62,265 nucleotides of DNA from a virus (lineage: Duplodnaviria > Caudoviricetes). The first letter of the stretch is position 1, and every line of letters starts with the position of its first letter. Both the position numbers and the translations under genes were made by a program. Below are positions 1-42,600 of this stretch, piece by piece. The DNA lies in IMG/VR virus record IMGVR_UViG_3300042291_000296, positions 1 through 62,265 of that record; one strand, written 5' to 3'. The notes under the pieces are model-generated. The model was not told the origin of the DNA. It saw only the letters and a list, made by a program, of their open reading frames with translations, and did not search any database.

Positions 1-219
1 GGTCCCAGACCAGCTCCGATGATTAAGGTAGTAAAGAAACCTAATTAGTGCATTTGTAAAAAAGTTGCATGAAGATACTGATATTACAGGTAGCAACACC
101 TAATATAAAGGATTATTCTGTTTACTCTATCCCAATAAATATAAATTATTCTATCAAGTGGGACTATGATTTTTTACTTTATACATCTAAAGAAGAAGAG
201 CTAAATTATCATCCTGCTT
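1..219. repeat. Terminal direct overlap with 62048-62265 (circular assembly)
   Basis: 1-219 matches 62048-62265 except a divergent ~20-nt intergenic stretch (49-68 vs 62096-62114) and one synonymous SNP (92 vs 62138); the last 127 bp are identical. Confidence 0.95.
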
Positions 220-770
220 GGCTAAAGATAACGGCTTTTTACAACATAAATGTTGACAAGTATGACTGGATTTGGGTTTTAGATGCTGACGCTGTTATTA
301 ACAATGAAAAAATCAAACTAGAGGACATAATTAGTGATTGCAATAGGCCAATTATTATTTCAGAAAATGGAGAAAATGGAGGCAGGCATTTAAACAGTGG
401 ATCGGTTTTAATCAAGAGTGAGTTTGTCAAAGAGTTACTACTTAAGTATGAGGAATGTGTTAGTAAGGACTATGTATTTTTAAACAAGCGATTTTGGGAC
501 CAAGAGTTAATAAACGATTGGTATGAAGAGAGCCCAGAACATTTCTCAGTCAGAAAGATGAAAGAGTTAAACTCACACTGGAGGATATATGGAGCGAGCA
601 AGGAGCATTGTTTAGAGCATGGGATTGATTATATACCTACTTACAATCAAGAGAAAAATTTGATACATCACTTTATGTCACTTCCGAGAGACATAAGAAT
701 TAATTGGATGAAGAATAATTGGATGTATAAACAAATAGATTTATTAAAAAAAATTAATATCTTTGTATAA
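69..770 (+). CDS. Glycosyltransferase, GT-A fold, GT34 (galactosyl/xylosyl transferase)-like
   Basis: HPAWLKI, YDWIWVLDADAVI (DxD), LNSGSVLI, WDQELIN and IHHF motifs, typical of GT34/Mnn10-like enzymes. Confidence 0.8.
   Translation: MKILILQVATPNIKDYSVYSIPININYSIKWDYDFLLYTSKEEELNYHPAWLKITAFYNINVDKYDWIWVLDADAVINNEKIKLEDIISDCNRPIIISENGENGGRHLNSGSVLIKSEFVKELLLKYEECVSKDYVFLNKRFWDQELINDWYEESPEHFSVRKMKELNSHWRIYGASKEHCLEHGIDYIPTYNQEKNLIHHFMSLPRDIRINWMKNNWMYKQIDLLKKINIFV
758..765 (+). promoter_or_regulatory. Bacteroidota sigma70 -7 box (TATCTTTG)
   Basis: Matches TAnnTTTG; 4 nt upstream of ATG 770. Confidence 0.55.
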
Positions 771-6683: not shown

Positions 6684-8179
6684 TGCAGGTAGTCGATGCG
6701 AATGGCAACATGTATGGTGACGACAATTTAGAGATAAATGACGTAAACGGTAAGCCTAAGACTACGGGTGGAGGAGGAGGTGGGGGTGTTACGTCAGTAG
6801 GCACAACTGGATTAATATCAGGCGGGCCAATTACAACTACAGGAACCATTAGTACATCTATGAATACCAATAAACTTGTTGGTAGAAGCACAGCAGGGCC
6901 AGGTATAATGGAGGAGATAACTGTTGGTAGTGGACTAACGTTATCATCTGGTACATTAAATAATACCGCAACACCTACACCACTTGGGTATTATGGAGCA
7001 TGGCAAGATGATATAACTCAAACTGCTGCTGCTAGTAATACAGGATATGCAATGATTTATAGAGTTACTGATATTACTCCTAGTGGTATATCAATTGTTA
7101 ATAATGGCAGTGGAAATCCTACAAGAATAACATTCGCAAATACAGGTATATATAACATTCAATTCTCTTCACAATTTCAAAACCTAGCTAATTCTCCACA
7201 AGATGTAACTATATGGTTAAGAAAAAATGGTACTGATGTAGTAGGTAGTTCAGGAGTTGTAGGAATGGAGGCTAGAAAAAATCCAGGAGATCCATATCAC
7301 ACAATAGTAGGTTGGAATTATGTATTAAGTGTAGTTGCAGGAGAGTACTATGAATTAGTATGGAGTACAACAGACCATATACACGTAGAAATGCACTCTT
7401 ATGCAGCAGGTTCTCCTCCTCCATCAGCAGCATCAGTTATTTTAACTGTTACACAACAGAGTGGTATAATGGCAGGTACGGGCATTACTGCACTTAATAG
7501 TTTAACTGGAGCTGCTCAAACATTTGGTAACGACACGAATGTTACTATGGTATCATCTGGAACTACTCATGCAATTACATGGGCTGGTACACTAGCAGAT
7601 AGCAGGATAGCTAGTGCATCAACTTGGAATGCTAAACAAAATGCTTTAGTTAGTGGCACAAACATTAAAACAATTAACTCTACCTCATTATTAGGTAGTG
7701 GTGATATTGCTATATCATCTAGTCCTTATACTACAGTAGGCAATGCTACAGGAACATTAGTAAACAACTCGACCACCAATACTATTAGTGCGTCTATCCT
7801 TATTCCTGCTAATACCTTAGTACCTACAAAAGTACTACAGCTAAGGTCTCAAGTTCGTAAGATAGGAGGCGCAGGTACAACTAACGTAAGATTCTACATT
7901 AACACAATTAATAGTTTAGTGGGTGCTACTCAGATAGCTCAAGGTTTAAATATGACAGGCTCAGGGCTTATGCAAAGAGTAGGAAGAGATATCTATATCA
8001 CTAATAACAGCATTCAATGCTACTCACCTTTTAACGGTCTTGCAACCGACTTAAATAGTGGCCCTATGACTAACGTAGCTTATGTACTTGCTACACCTTA
8101 CTACCTTATAGCAGCAATACAATGCTCTACTCTATTAGACGATGGTACAATAACAAGGCTCAATCTAATGACCTACTAA
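6683..8179 (+). CDS. Tail/head fiber protein
   Basis: G/T/S-rich; GVTSVGT..LISGGPITTTGTIS repeat, C1q/BclA-like TGIYNIQFSSQ domain, KQNALVSGTNIKTINSTSLLGSGDI fiber motif. Confidence 0.8.
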   Translation: MQVVDANGNMYGDDNLEINDVNGKPKTTGGGGGGGVTSVGTTGLISGGPITTTGTISTSMNTNKLVGRSTAGPGIMEEITVGSGLTLSSGTLNNTATPTPLGYYGAWQDDITQTAAASNTGYAMIYRVTDITPSGISIVNNGSGNPTRITFANTGIYNIQFSSQFQNLANSPQDVTIWLRKNGTDVVGSSGVVGMEARKNPGDPYHTIVGWNYVLSVVAGEYYELVWSTTDHIHVEMHSYAAGSPPPSAASVILTVTQQSGIMAGTGITALNSLTGAAQTFGNDTNVTMVSSGTTHAITWAGTLADSRIASASTWNAKQNALVSGTNIKTINSTSLLGSGDIAISSSPYTTVGNATGTLVNNSTTNTISASILIPANTLVPTKVLQLRSQVRKIGGAGTTNVRFYINTINSLVGATQIAQGLNMTGSGLMQRVGRDIYITNNSIQCYSPFNGLATDLNSGPMTNVAYVLATPYYLIAAIQCSTLLDDGTITRLNLMTY

Positions 8180-11619: not shown

Positions 11620-11879
11620 AGATACTAGAGGCTGGTAAGGCGGCAATTGATGAGCTTATAAAGGTGCTTAAGTCTCCTATAATAACTCACGCTGAGGACG
11701 ATCTATCGGCAGATAAGTTGAAGAATGCTGCTGCGTCAAAGAGGTTAGCATTTGAGGATGCACTGTCTATGTTGTATAAGATAGAGGAGGAGGAGAACAG
11801 AGAGAATGACGTTCCAGTAAAGGACATAAGCATGCAGGGGTTTGCCGAGGGAAGGGCTAAGATAAAGAATGGAAAATAG
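11604..11879 (+). CDS. Probable terminase small subunit
   Basis: Helical 91-aa protein immediately upstream of and overlapping terL. Confidence 0.5.
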   Translation: MSKKIEILEAGKAAIDELIKVLKSPIITHAEDDLSADKLKNAAASKRLAFEDALSMLYKIEEEENRENDVPVKDISMQGFAEGRAKIKNGK

Positions 11880-14091
11880 ACTATATAGTATAATCACAGA
11901 CTGCATCCCAAAGGGTGTAGTATCTACAAAGAACAAGTTCAAGACTTGGGCTTACGGATACAATAGTGACTACGATGTAATAGTTATATCTAAGGATGGT
12001 ACCATAGGTGAAATATATGAAGTAAACAGCATAAGGATTGCACTACCACCAGCACCAGCAGAAGTTGATGACAAAAATAATAGATGGTCCCCACACGAGT
12101 ACGACAAAGACTTATTAAGAATAAAGACAATATTTGACTGGAATAGGAGAGATAATAAATTTAAGTCTCAGTACATAGACTATATAGAGAGAGAGTTTGA
12201 CAGACGTGATTCTGGGTATTGGTTTATGAACAACAACAAGAAGACATACATAACGGGTACACACTACATGTACCTACAGTGGACAAAGATAGATGTAGGT
12301 CTGCCAGACTTTCGTGAATCAAACAGGATATTTTACATATTTTGGGAGGCTTGCAAGGCTGACGATAGGGCGTTTGGTATATGCTACTTAAAGAATAGAC
12401 GTTCTGGATTTTCATTCATGTCTTCTGGAGAGGTGTGCAATACTGGCACGATTGTTCGTGACTCTAGGATAGGCATACTATCTAAAACTGGTAATGATGC
12501 CAAGAAGATGTTTACCGATAAGGTGGTCCCAATAGTTAGAAACTATCCGTTCTTCTTTAAGCCTGTGCAGGATGGTATGGACAACCCAAAGACAGAGCTA
12601 TCATTTAGAGTTCCAGCCAGCAAAATTACAAGAAAAAATATTGACGAGGAGAAGAACAACGACATTGACGGACTAGACACTACTATTGACTGGAAGAATA
12701 CAGCTGACAATAGCTATGACGGTGAAAAGTTACTGCTGCTTGTTCATGACGAATCTGGCAAGTGGCTTAAGCCTGAAAATATTTTAAATAACTGGCGAGT
12801 TACCAAGACGTGTCTACGATTGGGTAGCAGAATTATAGGCAAGTGTATGATGGGTTCAACGTCTAACGCACTTTCTAAGGGTGGTGATAACTTCAAGAAA
12901 CTTTATAACGATAGCGACCCTAAAAATAGATCTGCAAATGGTCAAACAAAGAGCGGTCTGTACTCATTATTCATTCCAATGGAGTGGAACTATGAGGGCT
13001 ATATTGATGAATTTGGATGGCCTGTACTGGAAGATCCATCTAAGGCAGTAGTAGGAATAGACGGAAACAAGATACAAAATAGCGTTATAACATATTGGAA
13101 CAACGAGGTGTCATCATTGAAGTCTGACGCTGACGCACTAAATGAATTTTATAGACAATTTCCTAGAACGGAGTCTCATGCTTTTAGAGATGAGTCCAAG
13201 CAGTCTATCTTCAATTTGACTAAGATATATCAACAGATAGACTACAATGACTCTTTGATAAAGGAGAGATTCCTTACTAGGGGGTACTTCCACTGGTTAA
13301 ATGGTGAGAAAGATTCAAAGGTGGTGTGGACTCCAGATCCAAAGGGACGATTCAATGTATCTTGGGTACCAGAGGTATCTCTAAGAAATAATGTGATAAC
13401 TAGGAACGGTAAGAAATACCCAGGCAATGAGGGTATGGGGGCATTTGGGTGTGACCCATACGACATATCTGGAGTAGTTGGTGGTGGTGGATCTAATGGT
13501 GCACTTCACGGTATGACAAAGTTTCATATGAATAATGGTCCGACTAACGAATTCTTTTTAGAGTATGTTGCCAGACCACAAACAGCAGAGATATTCTTTG
13601 AGGATGTCTTAATGGCTTGTATTTTTTATGGCATGCCCATACTGGCAGAAAATAATAAGGCTAGACTATTGTATCATTTTAAGAATAGGGGATACAGGGG
13701 ATACTCAATGAACAGGCCAGATAAACACCTTAACAAGCTATCTAAGACAGAGTTAGAGATAGGTGGGATACCCAACTCATCTGAGGACGTAAAGCAGGCT
13801 CACGCATCATCTATTGAGTCTTATATTGAGGAGTATGTTGGACTAGATACAGAGGGTACGTATAGAGATTCGAGCAATATGGGGTCTATGTATTTTACAA
13901 GAACACTTGAGGATTGGGCAAGATTTGATGTTAATAATAGAACTAATTTTGATGCATCAATTAGCTCTGGTTTAGCCATAATGGCGACACGAAGGTATAT
14001 GTTTGTGCCAGAGTCTAAAGAATCAAAAATAAGTATTAAATTTGTAACATACGATAATCGTGGAACAAGAAGCGAAATTATAAAAAAATAA
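11869..14091 (+). CDS. terL: Terminase large subunit
   Basis: KNRRSGFS Walker A variant, LLVHDESGKW Walker B, MGST coupling motif, GCDPYD nuclease motif. Confidence 0.93.
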   Translation: MENRLYSIITDCIPKGVVSTKNKFKTWAYGYNSDYDVIVISKDGTIGEIYEVNSIRIALPPAPAEVDDKNNRWSPHEYDKDLLRIKTIFDWNRRDNKFKSQYIDYIEREFDRRDSGYWFMNNNKKTYITGTHYMYLQWTKIDVGLPDFRESNRIFYIFWEACKADDRAFGICYLKNRRSGFSFMSSGEVCNTGTIVRDSRIGILSKTGNDAKKMFTDKVVPIVRNYPFFFKPVQDGMDNPKTELSFRVPASKITRKNIDEEKNNDIDGLDTTIDWKNTADNSYDGEKLLLLVHDESGKWLKPENILNNWRVTKTCLRLGSRIIGKCMMGSTSNALSKGGDNFKKLYNDSDPKNRSANGQTKSGLYSLFIPMEWNYEGYIDEFGWPVLEDPSKAVVGIDGNKIQNSVITYWNNEVSSLKSDADALNEFYRQFPRTESHAFRDESKQSIFNLTKIYQQIDYNDSLIKERFLTRGYFHWLNGEKDSKVVWTPDPKGRFNVSWVPEVSLRNNVITRNGKKYPGNEGMGAFGCDPYDISGVVGGGGSNGALHGMTKFHMNNGPTNEFFLEYVARPQTAEIFFEDVLMACIFYGMPILAENNKARLLYHFKNRGYRGYSMNRPDKHLNKLSKTELEIGGIPNSSEDVKQAHASSIESYIEEYVGLDTEGTYRDSSNMGSMYFTRTLEDWARFDVNNRTNFDASISSGLAIMATRRYMFVPESKESKISIKFVTYDNRGTRSEIIKK

Positions 14092-16520
14092 TGGATAAAT
14101 CACCAGTTATAATCAATCAATACCCGTTTCCAAATCAAATGGCATCTGAGGAAGAGAAGTCTACTGAAAAATACGGGTTAAATGTTGGCAAGGCCATAGA
14201 GGGCGAATGGTTTAAAAGAAGGAATAATTCCTGTAGGTTTTACGACCAACGGGGAGAGTTTAATAGACTTAGACTATACGCTAGGGGTGAGCAGCCTATA
14301 CAGAAGTACAAGGACGAGTTATCTATAAATGGAGACATGTCTATGTTAAATCTAGACTGGACCCCCATACCCATCATACCCAAGTTTGTAGATATCGTAG
14401 TTAACGGTATGTCAGACAGACTGTTTGAAATAAGGGCTGAGTCTCAAGATGTTATGTCTGCTGAGAAGAAGAACATATTTCAAGATATGATTGAGTCTGA
14501 CATGGTAGCAAAAGATTTTTTGACTCTTACCAAGGAACAGTTTGGTATAGATGCATTTAATGTTGATCCAGAGGAATTGCCAGAGAATGATGAGGAATTG
14601 TCATTGTATATGCAGTTAAAGTATAAGCCAAGCATAGAAATAGCACAAGAGGTTGCAATCGATACACTTCTTAAGATGAATGATTATTCGGAAACAAGAA
14701 AGCTAGTAGATTATGACTTGACTACTATTGGTATAGCGTGTGTTAAACATTCGTTCTTACCAAATGATGGAGTTAATATTGAGTACGTAGACCCAGCCAA
14801 TTTGATACATAGCTATACAGATAAGGCTGACTTTTCTGATTGTTATTATTTTGGTGAGGCAAAGCAGGTACACTACACTGAATTATTAAAGATAAATCCA
14901 AACTTAACGGATGAAGAATTAACGGAAATTAAAAATGCTGGTTCAGCTTGGACTAGTTATTTTCCTATAATTAGAAGTTATCAAGATGATGCCTTTCAAA
15001 ATGAAGTTGTTACGTTGTTATACTTTAACTATAAAACGTCTAAGCACTTTGTATGGAAAAAGAAGATACTAGAAAATGGTGGTGAAAAGGTAATAAGAAA
15101 GGACGAGTCATTTAATCCTCCAATTGAGGAGGGTATGATGTTCGAGAAGGTTGAGGCAGTAAGAGACGTGTGGTATGATGGCATACTTGTAGCTGGTTCA
15201 AACCTTTTATTAAAGTGGGAGTTGATGCGTAACATGGTTCGTCCTAAGTCTGCAACGCAGATGGCACTACCAAATTACGTATTGCATGCACCTAGAATGT
15301 ATAAGGGTATGAAGGAGTCTCTAGTTAGACGAATGATCCCATTTGCTGATCAGATACAATTGACTCACCTTAAGCTTCAGCAGGTAATGGCTAGAGTTGT
15401 TCCTGATGGGGTATTTATTGATGCAGATGGTATCAACGAGGTTGACTTGGGTACTGGTGCAGCATACAATCCAGAGGACGCACTCAAGTTGTACTTCCAG
15501 ACGGGTAGTGTTATTGGTAGAAGTTATACACAAGATGGTGACTTTAATAACGCAAGAATTCCTATTCAAGAGTTAAACTCAAATAGCGGTCAAGCAAAAA
15601 TGGGTGCACTTATTAATAACTACAACCACTATCTAAACATGATTAGAGATGTGACGGGCATTAATGAGGCTAGAGATGGAACGTCACCTCATCCAGATGC
15701 ATTAGTTGGTGTACAGAAGTTAGCTGCTATGAATTCTAATGTAGCTACTAGACACATACTAGAGGCTGGTCTTAACATCACCAAGCGTTTGGCTACATGT
15801 ATATCAATCAGGGTTGCGGACATACTAGAGTATTCTGATTTTGCTGAAGAGTTTGCTATGCAAATTGGCAAGTATAATGTTTCTATAATAAACGATGTAA
15901 AAGATTTATATTTACATGACTTCGGAATATTTATAGAGTTATCTCCAGATGAAGAGCAAAGAGCAAACCTAGAGACCAACATACAGATAGCGTTACAACA
16001 ACAGACAATTGACCTAGAGGATGCAATTGACATACGAAATATCAAGAACATTAAGCTTGGCAATGAGTTGCTAAAGGTTAAGAGACGTAAACGAATGGAG
16101 AAGCAGCAGCAGGACAAGCAGATGGAATACCAGATGCAAATGCAGACAAACATGCAGACTCAACAGGCAGCAGCAGAACAAAAGGCTCAATTGTTTCAAA
16201 TGGAATCTCAATCTAAGATCCAGATTAAGCAGGCAGAGGCTGAGTATGCTATACAGCAGTTGAGAGCAGAGGCTGATCTAAAGAAGGAGTTAATGGCAAT
16301 AGAGTTTGACTATAACATGCAACTAAGGGGCATGGAGTCAGATCAATTAATGAGTAGAGAGAAAGAGAAAGAAAAGGCAAAGGATAACAGGATTGACTTA
16401 CAGGCAACTAGACAGTCAGACCTTATTAACCAAAGAAAAAATAATCTTCCGCCTTTAAACTTTGAGAGTAATGAGGATTCACTTGACGGATTTGACTTAG
16501 AATCATTTAGTCCTAGATAA
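14091..16520 (+). CDS. Portal protein
   Basis: 809 aa directly after terL; PIIPKFVDIVV, RDVTGINEARDG, Q-rich C-terminal coiled coil. Confidence 0.9.
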   Translation: MDKSPVIINQYPFPNQMASEEEKSTEKYGLNVGKAIEGEWFKRRNNSCRFYDQRGEFNRLRLYARGEQPIQKYKDELSINGDMSMLNLDWTPIPIIPKFVDIVVNGMSDRLFEIRAESQDVMSAEKKNIFQDMIESDMVAKDFLTLTKEQFGIDAFNVDPEELPENDEELSLYMQLKYKPSIEIAQEVAIDTLLKMNDYSETRKLVDYDLTTIGIACVKHSFLPNDGVNIEYVDPANLIHSYTDKADFSDCYYFGEAKQVHYTELLKINPNLTDEELTEIKNAGSAWTSYFPIIRSYQDDAFQNEVVTLLYFNYKTSKHFVWKKKILENGGEKVIRKDESFNPPIEEGMMFEKVEAVRDVWYDGILVAGSNLLLKWELMRNMVRPKSATQMALPNYVLHAPRMYKGMKESLVRRMIPFADQIQLTHLKLQQVMARVVPDGVFIDADGINEVDLGTGAAYNPEDALKLYFQTGSVIGRSYTQDGDFNNARIPIQELNSNSGQAKMGALINNYNHYLNMIRDVTGINEARDGTSPHPDALVGVQKLAAMNSNVATRHILEAGLNITKRLATCISIRVADILEYSDFAEEFAMQIGKYNVSIINDVKDLYLHDFGIFIELSPDEEQRANLETNIQIALQQQTIDLEDAIDIRNIKNIKLGNELLKVKRRKRMEKQQQDKQMEYQMQMQTNMQTQQAAAEQKAQLFQMESQSKIQIKQAEAEYAIQQLRAEADLKKELMAIEFDYNMQLRGMESDQLMSREKEKEKAKDNRIDLQATRQSDLINQRKNNLPPLNFESNEDSLDGFDLESFSPR

Positions 16521-26085: not shown

Positions 26086-28935
26086 ATGAATACAAATCAA
26101 TCGTTTGAATATACAGGCAGCTCTCAGTACGACATAAACAATGTTATACTTAGTAATGCTAGCATTGCATTATTTGATACGTTGACTGGAGTTGGTGGGG
26201 TTGACTTTATGCCATCTAACGGGTCAGTTGTTACAGTAAAGTCTGGAGATCCATCTGGAGCATTTACTGACTTAGTACCTACACTAAATAATAAGCTATA
26301 CTACTTGGTATCAGATCAACTTTATAGTCAGTCAGACAGAGATATAATAATAGCCGACCGAATAGAAATACCTGTAATTTATAACTATGGAATATATGAG
26401 GGTACGTTCACCTTTGTCAATCCAAATGACTATGAATATCTTTATTTATTGTGGGACTATTCTGACAATATTGGAACAGGTACCGTGTCGTTTTTAGGTG
26501 AAACATCAGATAGGTCTATATCTTTTCCACTTGGAGGTGATATTGGTATAACAGGTATAAACTATAATGCAATAGATTATCCTACTAGATTTCAGATAAT
26601 GTGGGGTGACGTTATTGTTGCTGACTCGCAGTATGTTGGGTTAAATTCATTGGCAAACTACAATGCATTAATAGCTTATGGTGTAGACCCATCAAATATA
26701 GCACTGCAATCACCGTATGATGGACTAGTAAATAATGGTGTTGGGAGTCTATTATTTAAAAAGTTTGCTGCTGGAACTGGATTTGACGATGCTACAATTA
26801 TAGTATCATCTCCTGTTTCTGTAAGTTCAATTTGGATTGTAAGCAAGATCGATACATATTTAAATACCTTTTGGATAGATATAACTGATGGTACTGATGC
26901 CGATGTGTGCACTCAGTGTCCTTTAGACATGTACTATCATAATGGCTCAGGATTACTTCCAGTGTCAGGTGACACCATATACACAACCTCAGATGGTCTG
27001 TCAGTGTTCGATGGTAATGATGCATATCATATGATTGATACCTCTATATGTGCTATTCCAACGCCTGTAAATAAGACATACTGTCTGGTAAGTGATTCAG
27101 GTATAGTAGTATCTGTATCTGCATGTAACTGCCCTGATTTTGCGGTACCATTTATATATCAAGAGGATATATACTTTAATATAAATGAAAATGTAAATAT
27201 ACCAATAAGTGTGACTAATTCTCCAACATCGTGGACCGTTGACACTCTATGTCGTCAGTATATATTGACAGGTGGTACTGATTCTACATTGTTTGAGTAT
27301 ACTGACTGTGATGGAAATTCAAAGAATATAACAGTATCACAAGGGTTTGACATGCAAATATGTACACTATCATATCCAACTGTTGTGCGAGGTAGTGGAT
27401 CGATTTCAGACAATGGCAAATGTAACTCTGTAGTTTTTCCATCTGGGATTACATTTGAAAATGGGATACTATCTGGAACCGTAAACGAGGCCACAAATTT
27501 TAATGTAGACTTAATTGCTGCAAATTGTTTTGGAGACAGCGACCCTAGAACAATAGGTGTGTACATAGGACAGTCAAGTGATTATAATCCATTTTTAATA
27601 GATATAGAACAATTTAAAAAAACATCTGCTGACTGTTGCACTATAACACCATCGTTTACGCTTTCATACTTTATTGGTTCTGGACTAGTTCCAACAAAGG
27701 GAGATCAAATATTTTTAGATAGAAATCAAGAAGACTTTATTATTGGTGGGAATAAGTGGTACTATATAGACAAGTCAGACTACGTAATAAAGGTTGACTC
27801 GAATGGATACGTAAATGATATAGCTGTGTGTCCTGGTAGTACTACAACAACAACGACTACTACCACCACCACATTACCTGCTGGTGATTATTTTGAGGCA
27901 ACGTCTTGTTCAGATCCAACTATATCTGTAACATTATTAGATTCAAGTATGTTTGGGATATTGGTTGGAGATGTAGTTAAGACTACAGACGGCAACTGCT
28001 GGACCATAACAGCATCATCTATTGGAGGATTTCCATTTTACTATATAGAGAATCCAGTTACTATATACCCAGACTGTTCAACGTGTACGGGCACAACGAC
28101 TACTACAACTACGACTACGACAACCACAGCTCCAGTCATTACTCCATTTAGTATGGACATTACTGGTCTTAATTCTAGCTTTAATACGTGCAACATAACA
28201 CCCTCTCTAACAACTATGTACCATAATGGTGCTGGCCCTAATCCAATAGTAAACGACTTTGTTTACTCTGATGCATTGGGTGCTAATTTGTTTAATGGTG
28301 GTTACCTATGGTACTACTCTGATAATGGCGGTGTACTAGCTGCGATTAACATAGCTGATACGGGGCAGGTGTTGCAGTTTGATACATGTCTGTACGTTAC
28401 TACTACAACCACAACGACCACAATACCGTTATTCTATTATTATGGTGAGAAGTGCACAAACTTGGGCGGTCCTTCATACTTACTAGAGTATCAGAATCTA
28501 TCTGGTCTTGATATTGGAGCAATAGTAAAAGATAGTGCTGGTGAGTGTTACGAGATAATGTCGGTTACAGTCCCAGGTATAGTTGACGGAACAATATTCT
28601 TTCAGTATAACAACTGTGCTGACTGCATAGGAGTTACTACGACTACGACTACTACAACTACTACGACTACTACAACTACGACGACTACTACTACGACTAC
28701 TATGCCACCACTGACAGAGGTGATTTGTAAGGCTGGGTCATACATTAACGTATGTAGTGGAGATATATCATTATACTACATTACAGATCCACTTGGATCA
28801 ATGGTAGTAAGTAATATATACACAGACCCATCTGGATTAATATTGGCTCCAGCAAATTACTATATGCTTTTTGATGGGTCAATTGCCTATGAGTGGGATG
28901 GGGCTATATGGACTGGAAACACTAAAAACTGTTAA
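26086..28935 (+). CDS. Cys-rich, poly-Thr (mucin-like) virion protein
   Basis: 949 aa, acidic; repeated Cys-bounded modules joined by Thr tracts of 11, 12, 8 and 22 residues. Confidence 0.75.
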   Translation: MNTNQSFEYTGSSQYDINNVILSNASIALFDTLTGVGGVDFMPSNGSVVTVKSGDPSGAFTDLVPTLNNKLYYLVSDQLYSQSDRDIIIADRIEIPVIYNYGIYEGTFTFVNPNDYEYLYLLWDYSDNIGTGTVSFLGETSDRSISFPLGGDIGITGINYNAIDYPTRFQIMWGDVIVADSQYVGLNSLANYNALIAYGVDPSNIALQSPYDGLVNNGVGSLLFKKFAAGTGFDDATIIVSSPVSVSSIWIVSKIDTYLNTFWIDITDGTDADVCTQCPLDMYYHNGSGLLPVSGDTIYTTSDGLSVFDGNDAYHMIDTSICAIPTPVNKTYCLVSDSGIVVSVSACNCPDFAVPFIYQEDIYFNINENVNIPISVTNSPTSWTVDTLCRQYILTGGTDSTLFEYTDCDGNSKNITVSQGFDMQICTLSYPTVVRGSGSISDNGKCNSVVFPSGITFENGILSGTVNEATNFNVDLIAANCFGDSDPRTIGVYIGQSSDYNPFLIDIEQFKKTSADCCTITPSFTLSYFIGSGLVPTKGDQIFLDRNQEDFIIGGNKWYYIDKSDYVIKVDSNGYVNDIAVCPGSTTTTTTTTTTTLPAGDYFEATSCSDPTISVTLLDSSMFGILVGDVVKTTDGNCWTITASSIGGFPFYYIENPVTIYPDCSTCTGTTTTTTTTTTTTAPVITPFSMDITGLNSSFNTCNITPSLTTMYHNGAGPNPIVNDFVYSDALGANLFNGGYLWYYSDNGGVLAAINIADTGQVLQFDTCLYVTTTTTTTTIPLFYYYGEKCTNLGGPSYLLEYQNLSGLDIGAIVKDSAGECYEIMSVTVPGIVDGTIFFQYNNCADCIGVTTTTTTTTTTTTTTTTTTTTTTMPPLTEVICKAGSYINVCSGDISLYYITDPLGSMVVSNIYTDPSGLILAPANYYMLFDGSIAYEWDGAIWTGNTKNC
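27841..28701 (+). repeat. Four poly-Thr (ACN)n tracts: 27841-27873, 28093-28128, 28399-28422, 28636-28701
   Basis: Read directly; mixed ACT/ACA/ACG/ACC codons. Confidence 0.95.
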
Positions 28936-29855
28936 TGAAGAGACTACGATTTTTATCTGCACAGCCAGCAATAGATTATTATTCTTGGCAGGTAGAGGTT
29001 TATATACATAACTTTATAAGTCTTGGTTATAAAGAAAACCATATAGATATTGTTGCAGGCTATCAAGAAGACATACCTGAGTCATGGATAAAGCTACAGA
29101 AGAGATTTCCAAAGGCTAGATTTTTTTTCTATGAAGACACTATGGGAGAGTGTAAATATCTTCCAGCAATACAGGGTCATTTATTAAAAAAACATTTTAA
29201 GGCCCATCCATATCTAAAGAGAGACGCTATATTTTTTCATGATGCTGATTTTTTATTTACTAAATACTTTGATTTCTCAAAGTTTCTACATGATGACATT
29301 TGGTACTTCTCTGATACCATTAGCTATATAGGTTACGATTATATAATGAGCAAGGGCGAGGAGGTATTAGATGCTATGTGTGAAACAGTTGGTATAGATA
29401 AAGATGTTATCAAGAACAACCAGAAGAACAGTGGTGGAGCACAGAAGCTATTTAAAAATATAGACCATGAGTACTGGGAGCAGGTGGAGGAATACTCTTT
29501 AAAACTGTACGATGTTTTAATGGACAATCAACATGTAAAGAAGGAGGGAGACCCATACCCAATACAGGCATGGACGGCAAGCATGTGGGTAGAGCTTTGG
29601 ATGGGATGGAAGCTAGGGCATACCGTTGTTGTTCCTAGTGAGTTTGATTTTTGTTGGGCCACGTGCCCTGTATCAAGATGGGAGAGCGTCAATTTTTTTC
29701 ATAACGCAGGTGTAATGAATGATAAATCTGGAATGTTTTGTAAGGCAAAGTACATGGACAAGTATCCGTTCAAAGAAGACTTGAATGTTGTGCCAGAGAG
29801 GTGCTCTTATATGTACTATAAGCTATTGAAATCTATCGATACTTGTCTTGAGTAA
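28935..29855 (+). CDS. Putative protein O-glycosyltransferase (GT-A; plant SERGT1/HPAT, GT96/GT95-like)
   Basis: YYSWQ, KYLPAI, FFHDADFLF (DxD), GGAQ, WTASMW, FFHNAG; TAATG-coupled to the poly-Thr gene. Confidence 0.65.
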   Translation: MKRLRFLSAQPAIDYYSWQVEVYIHNFISLGYKENHIDIVAGYQEDIPESWIKLQKRFPKARFFFYEDTMGECKYLPAIQGHLLKKHFKAHPYLKRDAIFFHDADFLFTKYFDFSKFLHDDIWYFSDTISYIGYDYIMSKGEEVLDAMCETVGIDKDVIKNNQKNSGGAQKLFKNIDHEYWEQVEEYSLKLYDVLMDNQHVKKEGDPYPIQAWTASMWVELWMGWKLGHTVVVPSEFDFCWATCPVSRWESVNFFHNAGVMNDKSGMFCKAKYMDKYPFKEDLNVVPERCSYMYYKLLKSIDTCLE

Positions 29856-30693: not shown

Positions 30694-31095
30694 ATGGATG
30701 TAAGGTATTTAATAGACAGCGACTACGAAGTACTAGTCGACTGGTGGAAAGATTGGAGATGGGACGCACCTCCAAGGGATATGCTCCCACAAGACGGAGT
30801 TGGTGGTTTAATGGTTTCTAAGGATGGCGTTGACATATGTGCTGGGTTTATATACTTCACAAACTCAAAGACGGCATGGATAGAGTTTATAGTTTCAAAC
30901 TTCAAGTACAAAGAAAAAGATAGGAAGCAGGCTCTAGAGTTCTTAATATCTTCCCTTGTAGACGTAACAAGAGATGTAAACAAGTGCAAGTACATATACA
31001 CATCATTAAAGAGTCCCAGCCTTATAAAGAGGTATGAAAATTGTGGATTTAAGTCTGGCAGTACAAGTTGCACTGAAATGATTATGACTATATGA
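30694..31095 (+). CDS. GNAT-fold acetyltransferase-like protein
   Basis: ICAGFIYFTNSKTAWIEFIVSN...LIKRYENCGF; usual position before podovirus ejection proteins. Confidence 0.7.
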   Translation: MDVRYLIDSDYEVLVDWWKDWRWDAPPRDMLPQDGVGGLMVSKDGVDICAGFIYFTNSKTAWIEFIVSNFKYKEKDRKQALEFLISSLVDVTRDVNKCKYIYTSLKSPSLIKRYENCGFKSGSTSCTEMIMTI

Positions 31096-31577
31096 AGGTA
31101 AACCATTTCATGGTGATAGATGATTTCTTAGAAAATCCACATGGCCATATAGAAGATATATTTAATAACGAGTTTATAGATTACCAATCAGAGTCTGGCA
31201 TATTTAGAAATATACAGGTAAGAGATGACGAGGTAAAAGATACGGTACATGGGATATTGCCTGATTACGATGTGGTTCATAATTTTGTTAGGATGTCTCC
31301 ATATGGTCAGATAGAGCCAAACAACGTACACAACGATGAGATCATGGGAGATATCACGTGTGTGTTATATTTAAGTCTTAACCATCCAAGTGATGACGGC
31401 ACAACAATATATGATTGTGAAGACAAGATGATAGACGTAAGGTCTAAGTTTAACAGAATGTTTATTTTTGACTCCGCACTATATCATAGTCGGAATATTT
31501 TTAGTAACTTTGGTGTTGACAAATCATCAAGACTTATACAGGTCTTATTTTTAAATAAAAAAAAATGGCAGCAGTAA
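31092..31577 (+). CDS. 2OG-Fe(II) oxygenase
   Basis: VIDDFL, HxD (VHND), TCVLYL, GT, NRMFIFDSALYHS, distal RLIQVLF. Confidence 0.8.
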   Translation: MKVNHFMVIDDFLENPHGHIEDIFNNEFIDYQSESGIFRNIQVRDDEVKDTVHGILPDYDVVHNFVRMSPYGQIEPNNVHNDEIMGDITCVLYLSLNHPSDDGTTIYDCEDKMIDVRSKFNRMFIFDSALYHSRNIFSNFGVDKSSRLIQVLFLNKKKWQQ

Positions 31578-33661: not shown

Positions 33662-36600
33662 ATGGCAGAGATTGATGATGAAAATATTGTTAATGAGGAC
33701 AATCAATATTCTAGGGTTGATAATACAACTACCGAACCACCATTTAAATTTTCTTTAGATCAATATCTTAGCGATCTAACTGTTGATCCAATAACAACTG
33801 TTCCAGAAGTAACGGTAACGCCAAACGATGGGTTGTCTTCATACATGAGGACGTACTTAAATAACATTCAATCGGGTGCTAAAAAGGCAATGTCAAATGT
33901 AGACTTTAGTTATTTAGGCGGTGTTTTTGAGAAAGGATATGAAGGTGCACTTCGTGTCGTAGATCAAAATATTCAGGCGTTAAATATTTCTGAGGAAGAC
34001 AGAGCTAATATATATAAAGATCAAAAAAAAATTGATCAATATGTACAAGTGTATAATAACTGGAGAGACAGTGGGGGTACTGGTGAATTTGTTTTGTTTA
34101 ATCCAGATTTAGATCCTGAAACAGAATTTTCGGCAGAAAAACTTGGAACACAATTAAGCAAAAGAGAAAAAAAGTTGACTCAAGAAGAAATGAGGAAGCA
34201 AAACGAAACGGTAGTAAGAAGTAATAAGATAACGTCTGCTAATTTAAACATAAAACCAAAACCACTACCAAATAAAATAGCAACAACATTTGATGAAAAT
34301 ACGGGAGGATATATAACTGAATATCAACCAATCGAAAATAAAACTCTGGAACAGGAGATATCAACAGAAGTTATTCCTTCTTATATAGCTCAGACTAAAT
34401 TTTACGAAAAATTAGAAGAGAATGCTACTGCTAAAAGCATTATAAGTTTTAACAGGATTATGGAAGATAAAAGAAATCCTGCCTTAGGGTTTTTTGAAAA
34501 TGTTGTGCCCAAAGAAGTACTTGAATCTTCCCTAAAACAGATACAAAACAACTATACTGCTGATGGATATCTTGCCTACACAAAAGCTAATAATCTTCCT
34601 GCTGAACTAGACGTAAATACGTTAAACAATCATTTTAAAGGCACTGATATCTATTTTGATATGGATAATGGGGAGCTTAGGGTAAACTATGGAACCGCTA
34701 CAGAGAGAGCACTTCAAGAAAGTCCAGCAGATAGTTGGCTTATGCAGGCATATGAATATTTTTCTTATGCAGAAAGTGTAGGCCAGAATTCTCTAGTTTT
34801 TGATCCATCAAATCCAGAAGAATTATCTCAATGGATTCAAACGACATTGCTCACAGCAGAAGAGGAAAAAAGTATTAACACTGGCGACGTTGAAAAGAAT
34901 AGAAATAATTACTATAAACTACAACTTAGTCATCCTGAAAAATTTCAATCATCGCAGATTGACACCAAAGCAATTAATAATTATGTTGTTAAACAAAAAG
35001 AACAAGTAATTTACATAGCAAAACGGTTAGAATCAGATAAAAATGAATTGGATAAGTTAAAAGGAACTGAAACAATAATTAAATATGATAATCTTGCAAA
35101 AGAATTCACAACATTAAACGATAAGTTAACTGGAATAAAAAAAAATTTAGAGGGTAAAAAAAATCCGTCAGAAAAAGATATTAATGACTATAATTTACAA
35201 GTCGAAAATCTTAACAAAATTTATCAATCCATAGAACAATTAAAGAAGACTGACGAATTTTCTTATTATTCTGATTTAAACAAATCATTTGTCAGAAATT
35301 CAGAAGATCTGGTAAAGCTTAATGAAAATGCAAAAACGATTGAAGAACAAAATAAAGTAGTAGTTGCTAAAAAATACATAGAAAAAGAAGCACAGGGATC
35401 ATTTGTTGGAAATATAGCATCAGGACTTTATACAGGAATGATGGAGAAGGCAGAGAGTTCGGTTGTTTTAGCACTAGATGCAGCTGTAGGGACTGGGCTT
35501 ATTAAGGTTGACGATCTTTTCGGTCCTTCATACGCTGTGGATTTAGATAAAAGTGATACACAGAAGTACAATGAGTTTAAGAGGGAACTATCTAATGTTT
35601 TTGACAATGAAATAATAAATCGATATACTGAAGCAGCTTTTGGTACTACTGAGGAGTACGCTCAATCTGATAAAAGAAATGACTTTGAAAAATCTGCTCG
35701 AATGGTATCGGAATCATTAGGCGCAATGGCGGGTGGAGGTGGAAATAAATACCTTACTCTTTTTGGATTTTTCTCTCAGTCATACAATGCGATAAATAAA
35801 GAAATGAGGGGGGAGGAATTTGATGATTTAACTTCCTTTGAAAAAAATATATTGGCTGTACCAGTCAGTATAGCGGTGGGATATTTAGATAAACTTGGTG
35901 CAAAGATCTCACTTGGGGATCCTTTAGTTGAAAAATTATTACTTAAAACACTTGCAAAAGCTGTAACAGAAATCCCTAAGGATGCCACCATAGAATATGT
36001 AGAGTCAGTTGTGAAAAAAAGTATTGCCAACCAAATAGCACTAGGTACACTTAAGATTGTGGGAAGCTCATTTGCTGAAGGATTTACTGAGGGGGGTCAG
36101 GAGGTAGCAACTATGAGTGCAAAAGCTATATTTAATGAATACCACAAAAAAGATTTATTTAATTTACCAGATATAACTACCGAAAAGGGAAGGCAAGAGG
36201 CTAAGGATATTGTACTCGAAAATCTTTATTATGGAACGATTGGAGGGGGTATAATGTCAAGTGGAGAGCAATCTGTATCAGCCCTAAAAAATGGTTTTGA
36301 TAATTCAAAAGCAGACGCTAAATTTGATTTGTTGTACAATACAATAACTGACCCAGAATTAATTTTAACAGCTAAGAATGCTATAAAACTAGATTTAGCT
36401 AATAAAAAAATAACTAGAGAAACTGCCGAACAACGAATGGAGAGCGTGAACAGTGTATACTCTTTGTTTAAATCTATTCCAAAAGAATTGTCTACTGAAC
36501 AAAAAAAAGAGGCATTTAATTTAATAAGAGAAAAGCAAACAATAGAAAAAGAAATAGAAGGAAAGGATCCTGCATTAGTAAACGCTCAAAAAACCAGAGT

Positions 36601-39600
36601 CTCTGAAATAAATGAATCACTTAAAACAATAAGCAACAATGCCGCTAAAGAAACCACAAACAAACAGCAAGCAGGCACAGCAGAAGGCGGTGTCAGCGAA
36701 TATCAAGGAACTAGTGAAGGACAACCAGAAGGCGGGCAAGTCGAAGGGGGACAACGGAAAGCCACGGTCAATGAAACAGATAGTCGCAATAGCACTATCC
36801 CAAGCAAAGTACAAGAAGAAGTAACTACCTACAGAGCTGAAGAACAAGCGGAGCTTCTTAAGGTTATACCTAAAATAGAAAATTACAAGGTAAATGGTGA
36901 GATAGATAAAACTCTCATGCCAAAGACTGTACTAGATAAGTACAATAAGGTTTACAACAAGTATGACAATTTAATCAGTCCACTATTAGAGACCACAGGT
37001 GAAATCACAATCAACAAGCCTGCCATTGCTACCAATACAACAGCTGAGGTTAGCCGAGTAAAGTCATTGAAAGAAGTTGATGAGGATGGGGCTACATTTA
37101 ATATTGACGGGGTTAAGTACGAAGGTCCTGGATTGGTTGTACCTGTAATCAGCATGAACACAACAATGGAGGAGATTACTCCAGAGATGATATCTAACTT
37201 TGTTGAAGAGCACTCTGATAAGATCGGAGATTCTGAGACGGTAAAGGTTGGTATCTATAAGTTCCCTAATAGTAATCAGGTGTCTATAGACCTAAACATA
37301 CTTGCACCTGAATCATCTAGAGGTCAAGCTATTGAGTTTGGTCGATTGTCAGGACAGGAGTCTCTGTTTGACATGAGCACATTTGAAAATGTAAAGACTG
37401 GAGCTACAGGAGAAAATCCAATGCAGTTTACACCAAAGCAGTTTAAAGAAATTGCTAAGGCGTTAAAGGAGGGCAGGATGCCAAATGTTTTTGACAGTAA
37501 AGCAACTACAGCTAAAAAAATAGATTACAAGCAAAACTTAGTTACCCCTGAGAACTCAAGAGAAGTAGCATCAAAACAAGATACACCGTTAAAACAAAAA
37601 ATAGCTAAGTCAGCAGCTATGATAATGAAGTCTTTGCCTGGTGTTAAGATCTATCTTCATAACAATCAGTCAGAGATGCACCAAGCCATAGCAGATACAA
37701 CTGGTAGAAATGTAGATGATATATCTGATGAGGTAGGAAATGCAGCAGGAGCTCAAATTAAGAAAGAGATTCATGTAAACATGGATACTGCTAAGGAAAC
37801 TACAATACTACATGAGGCATTCCACGAGGCAATACTAAGATCTGGCAAGTCTTTTCAGACTATAACTGACTTTGCTAATGGTCTTAAAAATATTATATCA
37901 GACAAAGACGTTAAAGCTAAGTTAGACAAGTTTATCTCTATGTATAATGAATCAGATAGGGCAGAAGAGTTTCTATCTGAGCTTGGAGCTATTATGTCCG
38001 AAGCAGAGACTGAGCTAACAACCACAAAGTTTCAAAAGTTTTTAAATCTAATCAATAGAATAGCTAGAAGCTTAGGCCTACCTGTAATAATAAAGTCTAG
38101 TGCAACTGCACAAGAGGCTGTTGACTTTATTAATTATATGTCTAAAAGTCTTAGGACTGGTAAGGCGATTGAGGGAGATTATAGAGGTGAAGGTAAAATT
38201 AAAAGGCAGGACATAGAATTAAATGCTGAAATAAAAAAATCTCTTTCTGAGCAAGATTCTATTAAAATAGCTAAAGAAGTAGTAGATAAAACTATTAAAG
38301 GAAAGGCTATACCTACATGGGTACAAAAAAAGACTTCCAATAAAGTTAAATTTGTTTCGTTTTCAGGAGAAATTAATCAAAAAAATGTAAAGGAAAATGC
38401 TCCTTCAAGTTATAATAGTACAGCTGCTAAATTTTCAAATTATAATACTTTTAATATTAATGTAAAACAAGAATTAAATAATTCTTTAGCTGGAGCTAGT
38501 AAAGAAAGTATAAATAAAGCTCTAGAACATAATAAAAATAAATTATTACCTAAAATAAATTCATTATTAAAAGAAATTGTAAAAATTAAAAGTAATAAAA
38601 AATTAACTAAAGAAGAGAAATTAAGTAAGATAAGTTTAAGAAATGAAGCTATTGTTAATATTAAAAAAATAGCAAAAATGAAAGATCTTAATGATCAATT
38701 AAATGCTGTTTTAAATATTGAACATAAATCAACTAAAGATTCATTGTATAATAGTATGTTTTATGATTTATCAACTAATTTAAAAAGATTAAAAGGACTA
38801 GAACTTGAAAATAAATCTGAAGGTATTTATAAAAAAGCAAAAGATATTGTTAAGTCAAATCTTTTATCTGTATATAATTCTGTTTCACCTAGAATTAGAC
38901 AAATAAGTAAATTATGGTATGATGGAGCTAATTTAATAGCTCAAGATATGGCTAATAACTATGAGTTAACTAATGAGCAGGCAGCTGCAATAATAGCAAC
39001 TCAATCCCCTCAGATGCCGTGGTTTGACAACTTACATCTTGCTGATGTAATTATGAATTTAATGCATTCAGAAAGTAATAGTATATTTACTAAAGAATTA
39101 TTTGATTATTATGTATCTAAATCTGAAGGGTATGCAGAACAGAAAAAATATATTCCTACTCTTTTAAAAGCTATAGGAACTCCTTTGTCTAAATTATCAG
39201 ATTTAGATGCTGCTATTTTTATTAGAGCTTATTATGACACTAAATTAAGTAGAAAAGCACCTATTAGAATACCAACTGGAACAGCTATATCTGAGGATCA
39301 AAAAGGAGATTCATCATTTAGTGGTTATAGTGTAATAGCTAAGGGTATATCTATATTTAGAGATGGGAGTATTGAAAATATATCTAATCAATTAGGAGAA
39401 GCAAATAAGGTTAGAAACTTTTACATGAATATTGCAGATCCATCTGACAAGAGAGCTGTAACTATAGATACTCATGCTATGGCAATTGCATTGTTTAAGC
39501 CATTAGCATCAAATGATTATGAAGTAAATTTTGATGCTGCTACATTTGCTTTTTATGCTGATGCATATAGAGAGTTAGCTGATGAATTAGGAATTGAAGC

Positions 39601-42600
39601 TAGAGCATTACAATCTATAACATGGGAAGCAGCAAGAGCTATTTTCCCTGCTAAAGAAAAAGCTAAATCTGGATACAAAGAAAAGATCTCTAACATATGG
39701 GATGAATTAGTTAGTGGAAATAAATCATTATATAAAGTTCAAGAAGAAATATTTAATCAATCACAAGACCCTAATATAACAGAGTGGTCTGAATACATAA
39801 ACATATTAAAAGATGAAAAAGCAAGAACAAATGTCAGTGGAAGAATTGTTGGATTGGAAGGGACTAGAGCCACCAATAACATGGGAGCAGTATCAGGAAC
39901 TAGTATCGGAGAATCCAAATCTTCAGGAAGAACTGGAGTATCTAGCAGAGGAGCCAAAATAAAACTCCAAAAGACCACACAAGAAACAAGAATGGACAAG
40001 GAGTCTGAGGATGTATTCAAGAAGTCATTAGATAGTGGAACAGATTGGGCCACATCTACTCAGGATGCACTAGACTACATACAGAAGTCAAATTGGTATC
40101 AAGATGCAACCGATATAGAGAGAGAACAGAAGGTAAGAGACTTTAAAGAATCTAAAAAACAGAAACTAAAGAAGGCACCATCTGTAGCTAAGATAATGGG
40201 CACGCCTAAACCAAAGATGGTTACAGTTAACGAGGCGGCTGCATTTAAAGATCAACTAAGACTAGAGGCCAAGGCAGCTAGAGAGGCTAGGGGTGACCTA
40301 AACTTTAAAAGAAAGTCGTTGTCTGATGCCATCAAGTCAATGGCTAAACTTGGAAAATTAAAGGTGAGCCAAGCGACCACAATCATCACAAGAGTTAGTA
40401 AAGTAAATCTTGATAGTTCAGTACAGGTTGACAGACTTATTGACTACGCAGCCAAAGTATTCGAGAGGGCAAACTATCAAGATAGATTAAATGATGCATT
40501 CTCTTACAAAAGGGCTATCAGAAAGTTATTAAAGACAAACAATCAGGCACAGGTTGTTGGCATGGCCAATGAGTTTACAAAGCTAGACCCATCTATGGTT
40601 GAAAATATAGAGGAATATATAGATATTGCTGAGAAAGTTAAGAAAGCAGTAGCTCCATCAAGAGCTAAAACATTTACTATTGACAACGATAATTACTTTG
40701 ACATGGTATTAAAACAAGCTACAAACATAGAGGCGGTGTCAAAATTTGTAAAAGATGAACTTGAAAAACAAGATCAACAATTAAAGGATGAGCTCTTGGC
40801 TACTAATAATGAGCTATTAGAATCTGGGTTTATATCTCGTGACATGACGGCAAAACAAATACAAGGAGTTATTGATTCAATGAAAAAGGATCCAGCATAT
40901 AAAATGGATAGCAAAGAAAAGGAAGGTTACATGATGACTTACCTATCACAAAGATTTAATTCATTGGCAGAAGTAATTTCAGACATTATAAAAACAAATC
41001 AAAATCCAGTTACTGGAGAAAGGGTAGCTATAGATCAAAAAGATGTAGCTATAATGTCAGATTTATTGAAGGTTGATCTGTCAGAAATGGGTGTCAGAGA
41101 TGCTCTTTTTATTGTTGAGGCAATGGACAACTTTATAACTAATGGAATCACTAGCAAGCTAGAGGGAGCCTTGTCTGCATACAAGGGGCAAATGGGTCTT
41201 AAAGAAGAGATAAAGTCGGGTAAGGTTGCTAGACCATTAAGGCTTTACTTTACTAAAAAAGCAGGCAGGGAGTTTGCAATTGAGTTTACACCTCTTCCAT
41301 TAATGATAGAGAGGATGTTTAATGGAGTTAAAAGTGGAATAAGTATAATGAAGTCTATGGGACTTTCTATTGTTATTAATGGTGTTAATAAGGCAAATTA
41401 TCTACACAACAAGATAATAGATGAGTACTACAACAAATTTATAAGGAAGAGTAAAACATTTCATACCCCTGAAAATGTATACGAAAGGGGTATGCTGGCC
41501 TTCTTGAAAAGAAATGTTACTGGTTCATTAGAAGAAATGAAGGCAGAGACAAATAGAAGAGTTAAAATGATAACACAAAGTATTACTACTTTAAAGAATA
41601 AAGGAGATAAATCACAAAAAGCTATGGCAGAAATTTATCAAAAAGTATTTGATAAGTTAGACGTAAGCACTGGAGACATAGACGTGATTGAATCAAGGGC
41701 ATCAAAAGAAAATAAAGATGCTGTTAACTGGTGGATAAACCAGTGGTCTAAACACTATAAAGATCTTTCTGATGTAAGTTTGTCGGTGTATAACTATGAC
41801 CTAGGAAGTGACCTTAACTATACCCCAGATAAATATAAGTTAATAAAAACTGAAGAGTTTGATCAAAAATTAATAGAAAGAAACTCATCGTTCTTGATTA
41901 GCATGGATAATTATACAGACAAAGAAAAAACAGGGGTTTTGATGCAATCAACCAGACCTAATGCTATGGAAGAAGGTAGATACCTGAGCTTTGATTTTGA
42001 TGCAAATAACTCTAACTCACTTAAGGGTGCACTAGTAGATATAAATACAGCGGCTGGAATAAGACAGATAGATGGATTTTTAAATTCAAAATTATTGGAT
42101 AAGCTGATACCAAGTACTGAAGATAGAGATGCATTAGTAATTAGAGTAAATAGATATATAAGAAGGTCTAAGGGTAAGATATTTATGCCTAAAGATTTGT
42201 ATAAGGATGTAGATTCGGTTATCAATTTTGCTGCGAGACTTGGTGTTGGTAAGGCACTAGGTGGTGTGCTACAGTCGGTAAAACAAACAATACCTATTGC
42301 AATAAGTACAGCTATAATGACAGGAAGGTTTAATATACCTAGCGTTAGTTTCAATGAGTGGCTAAACAAGACTGGCATGCCAATAGCAAATCGGGGTTTA
42401 GATTCACTGTCTGCTATAGAATCTGTAGACAGAAGACTGGACGCTAAGGCCACAGGGTTTAATAAACCATTAAAGTGGGTTCAAAAAACACAACAGCTAT
42501 ATCTAAAGTGGTTCTTATCAAAGCCAGATGTAATGATTGCAAGGATGGCATTCCAGTCATACTACTTACAGTATATGAAAGAGAGTTCTATTGACTGGGC

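Follow-up and report, generated by a model that had tools for sequence, protein, structure and literature searches.

A predicted protein O-glycosyltransferase encoded beside a poly-threonine, muzzle-associated protein in a crAss-like phage genome

Threonine tracts and neighbouring genes

The window studied here is a whole virus record of 62,265 nt, IMGVR_UViG_3300042291_000296 (Caudoviricetes; completeness estimate 100%), in which two overlapping genes encode a 949-aa protein with runs of threonine (Thr) and a 306-aa enzyme that probably glycosylates it (Table 1). Reading of the open reading frames (ORFs) confirmed that the larger protein contains four pure Thr tracts of 11, 12, 8 and 22 residues, each closed by a Pro within two residues, in every case at the second position. 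The stop of this ORF overlaps the start of the enzyme gene as TAATG (28933-28937), and the motifs YYSWQ, YLPAI, HDAD and WTASMW were all found in the enzyme, as an earlier reading made from the letters of the genome (the sequence-only reading) had described.

All four ACN codons are present in the tracts, with identical codons adjacent in 14 of 49 cases against a random expectation of 14.9, and the longest run of one codon is 3, in agreement with the earlier argument from mixed codons. The rough probability of a single run of 8 Thr is ~2e-6, and among 607 tracts in the loci L001-L178 (near-duplicates included) only one was made of a single codon. Contigs from other lake sequencing runs extend through every tract and through the junction of the two genes, and differ from the genome at 0 positions. 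A microsatellite origin was ruled out by the codon statistics, and an assembly artefact by the bridging contigs; the tracts are thus real and kept at the protein level. RNA from one run yielded short repeat matches only and no usable expression evidence.

An AlphaFold2 (AF2) model of the 949-aa protein, built from 28 sequences, displayed small all-beta modules (predicted local distance difference test (pLDDT) 78, predicted template modelling (pTM) score 0.38), and all four Thr runs had a pLDDT below 50. Foldseek with the whole model returned generic multi-beta-domain matches only (TM ~0.1) and nothing specific. In the 28-sequence alignment, the 11 Cys from position 582 onward are invariant. 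The protein is therefore predicted, from the model, to resemble beads on a string, the beads being small Cys-rich modules of all-beta structure and the string the poly-Thr linkers between them. The invariant Cys of residues 582-847 (27829-28626), in the beta modules flanking the Thr runs, are paired and include two CxxC motifs; such pairs are odd for a protein made in the cytoplasm and may form disulfides or metal sites.

PHROG 21885 matches three stretches of the protein. In three relatives, L043-L045, a homologous region to residues ~3-768 follows the muzzle protein within a single fused chain of ~2070 aa, the muzzle part of the L045 fusion being 36% identical over 1359 columns. It is mainly on the basis of this fusion that we read the 949-aa protein as a tail-tip component, presumably incorporated in the virion. 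The Thr protein and enzyme genes are also sandwiched between the crAss_MUZ and crAss_MUZ_C genes, as in a crAss-like muzzle module, so that the tail-module context held.

Table 1. Coordinates of the main features in the window.
Feature	Position	Strand	Evidence or remark
949-aa Thr protein, muzzle-associated, predicted acceptor	26086..28935	+	ORF, AF2 model, PHROG 21885
Thr tract 1, 11 aa (aa 586-596)	27841..27873	+	followed by LP
Thr tract 2, 12 aa (aa 670-681)	28093..28128	+	followed by AP
Thr tract 3, 8 aa (aa 772-779)	28399..28422	+	followed by IP
Thr tract 4, 22 aa (aa 851-872)	28636..28701	+	followed by MPP
306-aa enzyme, PHROG 4417 family, predicted protein O-glycosyltransferase	28935..29855	+	PHROG 4417 E 4e-62, AF2, Foldseek, VIA, conservation
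Muzzle (tail-tip) protein, N-terminal main part, 1358 aa	22005..26081	+	Pfam crAss_MUZ E 6e-10; PHROG 14478 virion structural protein
Muzzle C-terminal part, 269 aa	29876..30685	+	Pfam crAss_MUZ_C E 4e-12
Second glycosyltransferase-like gene, 233 aa, unlinked to the pair	69..770	+	Pfam Glyco_transf_34 E 3e-4, under cut-off
Terminase	11869-14091		
Portal	14091-16520		virion structural genes after it

Fold and conserved residues of the enzyme

The enzyme matches PHROG 4417, a family whose function is annotated as unknown and which comprises 837 clusters at 50% identity and 1238 at 90%. No sequence match was obtained for it in Pfam, NCBIfam or the PDB, and matches of the family profile in PDB sequences, to TAL repeats and others, were rejected as noise of 31-38 columns. 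Its AF2 model is of high confidence (pLDDT 97.2, pTM 0.94), and the top PDB matches in VIA were all GT-A enzymes: LgtC with Z 14.6 (root-mean-square deviation (rmsd) 3.5, 235 aligned residues), Gat1 and glycogenin at 13.9, and UGGT and WbbM at 13.7. The top Foldseek matches were likewise GT-A enzymes. The model thus agrees with the GT-A assignment proposed earlier and corresponds to one Rossmann-like alpha/beta domain of the kind seen in solved GT-A structures. The structural comparison with GT95 and GT96 suggested at the same time gave the GT-A match, and neither the Foldseek nor the VIA fold list held a GT95 or GT96 entry, which excludes nothing.

The DxD motif corresponds to D103 and D105 (HDAD) and comes after a beta strand at 98-101 in the model. 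D103 is kept in 112 of 113 aligned family members, and D105 and H256 (HNAG) in all 113; these residues would bind a metal. The chain begins with the first beta strand, and no membrane anchor is present in the sequence or the model. Taken together, these features predict a soluble GT-A glycosyltransferase that depends on a metal, and the likeness of the enzyme to GT8, GT24 and GT6 enzymes suggests a retaining mechanism. Among longer homologues, 19 of 82 have a second glycosyltransferase (GT) domain, the fusion partners within the family being GT2, GT6, GT7, GT25 or GT32-type domains.

This fold would also suit an enzyme that acts on Thr tags by extending a sugar placed by the host, or by adding a phospho-sugar or another group activated by a nucleoside diphosphate (NDP), which we consider unlikely. 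LgtC, Gat1 and XXYLT1, the best structural neighbours, extend existing glycans, and weak Stealth_CR2 matches, the best at E 0.002 among 6 of 113 members, together with the phosphotransferases GNPT and CpsY at Z ~10 in VIA, hint at phospho-sugar transfer. However, the phosphotransferases lie ~4 Z below the GT8-like group, and the fused GT domains mentioned above would be likelier extenders than the family domain itself. The family also spans Bacteroidota-type and Bacillota phages, and we know of no cytoplasmic Thr-glycosylation system common to these hosts. Finally, the nearest named families, the plant hydroxyproline (Hyp) arabinosyltransferases (HPAT) and SGT, work directly on the peptide backbone (PMC8012813).

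Occurrence of poly-Thr runs with the enzyme

The co-occurrence of enzyme homologues with poly-Thr proteins, which the sequence-only reading had put forward as a check, was examined in 88 viral loci (13 plus the best 80 of 580, the two sets overlapping) and in the best 80 of 121 genome loci. A same-strand poly-Thr run was found near the enzyme in 83 of the 88 viral loci, in 82 of them within 1.5 kb; the nearest run was upstream of the enzyme in all 83, and an opposite-strand run was seen in 2 of the 88. Thr runs were also present in 31 of 32 Bacillota loci. Homologues were carried by 75 isolate phage records, with 28-40% identity for the 60 listed. They include dairy, enterococcal and staphylococcal phages in culture, in which the protein is annotated as hypothetical. 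All ten isolates inspected from the 60 listed had Thr runs near the enzyme, mostly as C-terminal tails of capsid, connector or tail-tube proteins. The tails of one phage often end alike (HHD in 1706, SK in iLp84, SHA in two Lacticaseibacillus prophages). These tags are borne by several separate virion genes, at most 3 kb away on either side of the enzyme gene, which lies inside the morphogenesis module in all inspected isolates except Lpa804. Overall, the candidate acceptor runs comprise 6-40 Thr and are terminal or internal linkers.

Two further arrangements were noticed at these loci. The Thr tail of the capsid or tail-tube gene is encoded out of frame, or immediately beyond the stop codon, at L016:3947-3990 (bIL285), L020:3800-3890 (phage 9183), L022:3658-3930, L023:3720-3926 and L130:3071-3200, which suggests a programmed frameshift or readthrough tagging a fraction of the subunits. 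Proteins of ~120 aa with a short domain and a long Thr-rich tail, candidate decoration proteins, are encoded directly upstream of the enzyme at L019:3620-3997, L144:7660-8001, L159:7630-7998, L165:7630-7998 and in L021 upstream of 4007.

Controlled comparisons were made within protein families that occur with and without the enzyme. In the tail-tube family, where 73 of 80 loci were scorable (at least 1.2 kb downstream), Thr tail and enzyme were both present in 17 and both absent in 56, with no discordant locus. In a phylogeny of 71 distinct tube cores devoid of their tails, whose bootstrap was not fully settled and in which tail and enzyme labels were identical for all rows, 10 changes of state were counted, at least 7 of them forced by supported branches; seven of seven independent pairs were concordant (p 0.016). 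All 17 positives had a second run, located 1.5-1.9 kb upstream at what is the end of the capsid gene in annotated equivalents. Given this second tract and the end motifs shared by capsid and tube proteins, hitchhiking of one piece of DNA is not the explanation. For the sister phages, 30 of 80 loci reach the C-terminal muzzle part: 5 had both run and enzyme, 24 neither, and the remaining 1 only a short run at some distance. In two sisters without the enzyme, residues 1-582 of the Thr protein are retained and the protein stops short of the first tract. A search of the full records (11-77% complete) of all 25 sisters that lack the enzyme at the locus did not find it there either, with a positive control of 5/5. 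In an Enterococcus capsid set, 71 had both, 7 (83-86% identity) had neither and 2 contigs ended 90 nt after the capsid match; this set was counted as one contrast because it is nearly clonal.

From the predicted fold, the conserved residues and the genomic coupling, we think it probable that the enzyme is a phage-encoded protein O-glycosyltransferase for poly-Thr tags. The enzyme would bind a host NDP-sugar through its DxD motif and His with a divalent metal, and transfer the sugar, in the cytoplasm and during particle assembly, to Thr hydroxyls in the linkers of the neighbouring, probable tail-tip protein. Thr would be the acceptor and the sugar added the first one. Floppy Thr spacers would thereby become four stiff, hydrated, mucin-like rods that keep these modules of beta structure at a distance from the tail tip, and in Bacillota phages the same family would modify short C-terminal Thr tags of major capsid, connector and tail-tube proteins to give a sugar coat. 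The benefit may be linker extension or a shield in adsorption or against proteases; stiffening, protease shielding and glycan bait, as proposed by the sequence-only reading, are candidate roles. The idea of a dedicated enzyme-substrate pair was supported in its coupling and has to be broadened, since C-terminal tags on capsid and tail-tube proteins also appear to be served.

Several observations weigh against this assignment. The best structural neighbours are the glycan extenders named above, and residue 216, presumably acidic in the corresponding motif of the plant enzymes, is a Ser both in this enzyme and in 57 of the 113 members. Many of the loci are near-duplicates. Five of the 88 viral loci lack tracts nearby: three are small fragments (4-16% complete), several genes with Thr runs lie elsewhere in the fourth record (90% complete), and the fifth (56%) has none that is clear. 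Tracts are also missing from the Bacillota locus L142 and from 34 of 41 Bacteroidota genome loci (7 have them). Three enzyme-less tail-tube loci retain a Thr run elsewhere in the locus, a quick tree gave only 5 pairs (p 0.06), and the sister phages amount to one contrast because the five positives are closest kin. When 80 viral loci were chosen for ten consecutive Thr codons, the enzyme was within 10 kb in only 8, and none of 19 such records searched as a whole, mostly fragments, had it elsewhere.

A rival reading is that the Thr runs serve as flexible spacers or tags and stay unmodified, that the enzyme targets a host receptor, phage DNA or a small molecule, and that position or a shared niche creates the link. 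The 72 of 80 poly-Thr viral loci with no enzyme nearby and the bacterial homologues without tracts speak for it, and phage glycosyltransferases for DNA or host serotype are known (PMC12619734). We nevertheless find it improbable, since tag and enzyme were fully concordant in the tail-tube family over at least seven independent changes, the tags sit on separate virion genes on both sides of the enzyme, the gene belongs to morphogenesis modules in isolates other than Lpa804, and the protein is devoid of a membrane anchor. The 8 of 80 is far above the background, which amounts to at least ~1700 stretches with the enzyme motif in 2.9 million contigs, and the other 72 indicate that poly-Thr is independent of the enzyme in most such stretches, some of which are non-coding. 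L193, L237, L183, L194 and L187 encode Cys-rich viral proteins with similar poly-Thr linkers and no family member nearby; none was found in the partial whole records searched for the first four or in the locus of L187, and another transferase may serve these proteins.

The Pro that closes all four tracts here, noted by the sequence-only reading, follows 376 of 432 viral tracts; as a general feature it did not stand, being present after only 20 of 96 Bacillota tracts. It bears on a plant-like route in which a 2-oxoglutarate (2OG)-Fe(II) oxygenase hydroxylates the closing Pro and the enzyme glycosylates Hyp. An oxygenase-like gene 1.2 kb downstream of the enzyme (Pfam E 0.0015) and the remote HPAT likeness would fit such a route. 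Since an oxygenase homologue occurs in only 5 of the 32 enzyme-bearing loci that span its slot, and given the Bacillota figure, the Hyp route is not supported and we hold it to be very improbable.

The tract-less bacterial homologues form a branch of their own. In a FastTree phylogeny, 34 rows, all from Bacteroidota genomes, made up a separate supported clade, 33 of them tract-less. A peptidase-ABC motif was found within the flank of 22 of 41 Bacteroidota loci, and the neighbours in six scanned loci included radical SAM/SPASM proteins, lanthipeptide-type and grasp-with-spasm maturases and peptidase ABC exporters. These peptide-maturation neighbours suggest that the acceptors of the family are peptides, and the chromosomal loci are candidate clusters for glycosylated ribosomal peptides with an unannotated transferase. 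At L105, L112, L114, L116, L136 and L147 (~position 8001), and in related Chitinophaga, Pedobacter, Sphingobacterium and Mucilaginibacter loci, the clade enzyme is often fused to a second domain.

As regards the genome itself, Pfam and PHROG scans of its proteins gave the layout of a crAss-like podophage. Nine sequencing runs held at least half of the words of the genome and were labelled lake water, freshwater or, in one case, plain metagenome. The host is presumably a member of the Bacteroidota, judging from the crAss-type genes and a BT4734-like domain. The second glycosyltransferase-like gene, far from the Thr protein and enzyme pair, possibly encodes a chain extender. The 2OG-Fe(II) oxygenase-like gene (31092-31577) lies in the tail/ejection module, and few relatives have one. 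GroEL and two GroES-like genes are present in this 62-kb phage (2584-4143, 4127-4384 and 11059-11619), the 85-aa product being assigned by sequence only, and 33662-44002, 3' of putative ejection genes, encodes a protein of 3446 aa.

Comparison with known glycosylation systems

The enzyme had been called plant-type by the sequence-only reading for the likeness of its motifs to those of HPAT (GT95) and SGT1/SERGT1 (GT96). PF23452 (HPAT; cut-off 23.9 bits) gave no match to the enzyme; it matched 3 of 113 family members, all weakly, the best at 21.9 bits, just below the cut-off, and colinear with the profile (9-242 against 9-230 of 307, E 1.3e-4). None of 70 scanned homologues, among 85 proteins from a search seeded with this best-matching one, matched HPAT, nor did the model match this genome or five genomes carrying the family, in a scan where no positive control rang. 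An HPAT label is borne by 22 of the 30 nearest named Atlas clusters, and by 10% of members in the cluster shown. The term plant-type is therefore too strong: the plant link is at most a weak remote homology, a lead, and the score for membership of GT95 or GT96 was not reached. In role, the predicted phage enzyme would resemble HPAT and SGT1, the plant and algal initiating peptide O-glycosyltransferases for repetitive hydroxy-amino-acid proteins. It differs in acceptor, Hyp or Ser in the plant enzymes and candidate Thr in the phage, and in location, HPATs being Golgi type II membrane proteins whereas the phage enzyme is predicted to be soluble. The two plant families are related to each other (PMC8012813, as for the location).

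With the GT8/GT24/GT6-like retaining enzymes (LgtC, Gat1, glycogenin, UGGT) the enzyme shares a fold over nearly the whole chain (Z 13-14.6), the DxD motif and a C-terminal His. It differs from them by ~10% identity, an rmsd of 3.5-4, the lack of a sequence-level match and another genomic context.

A literature search, which covered mainly open-access papers, returned no description of the PHROG 4417 family or of the tag pairing; survey tables of Freeman et al. 2023, reportedly on mycobacteriophage virion glycosylation, could list the family. In the available part of a survey of prokaryotic low-complexity regions, poly-Thr is mentioned only for polysaccharide-binding proteins (PMC6821194). Tentatively, and with somewhat less than even confidence, we propose a broader picture: PHROG 4417 would be a widespread, undescribed family of single-enzyme protein O-glycosyltransferases reading a portable poly-Thr tag, with which Bacteroidota and Bacillota phages give their capsids, tail tubes and tail tips mucin-like coats and bottle-brush linkers. 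A bacterial clade would apply it to ribosomal peptides, and the plant HPAT/SGT1 extensin glycosyltransferases would have their prokaryotic sister in this family. If true, this would annotate a large family of unknown function, offer a reason for the Thr runs at the ends of some particle proteins, and bear on the protease resistance and adsorption of phage particles. Habitats such as lakes, brines and dairies would mean that antibody shielding is not the sole purpose. Cytoplasmic O-glycosylation would become accessible with one enzyme and a short tag, and the origin of the plant extensin enzymes would gain a lead; as enzyme and acceptor are both named, the proposal is directly testable in existing isolates.

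Virion glycosylation is documented only for actinobacterial phages in the literature surveyed, and our data point to a second, unrelated and broader system. Glycosyltransferases of the mycobacteriophages Che8, Corndog and Myrna modify the C-termini of their own capsid and tail-tube proteins (PMC12363180, PMC12619734, PMC11256854), the same two proteins that bear candidate C-terminal tags in the Bacillota members of the family. No mycobacteriophage was found among the 75 phage records with a homologue. The PHROG 4417 profile scores at best 0.4 bits against the Che8 enzymes gp108-110, the only ones compared, which are thus dissimilar to it. No Thr run is present in the Che8 capsid and tail-tube proteins, whose C-termini are Gly-Ser. 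In contrast to the mycobacteriophage system, the family described here has a single enzyme encoded within the morphogenesis module and a candidate acceptor made of dense Thr runs.

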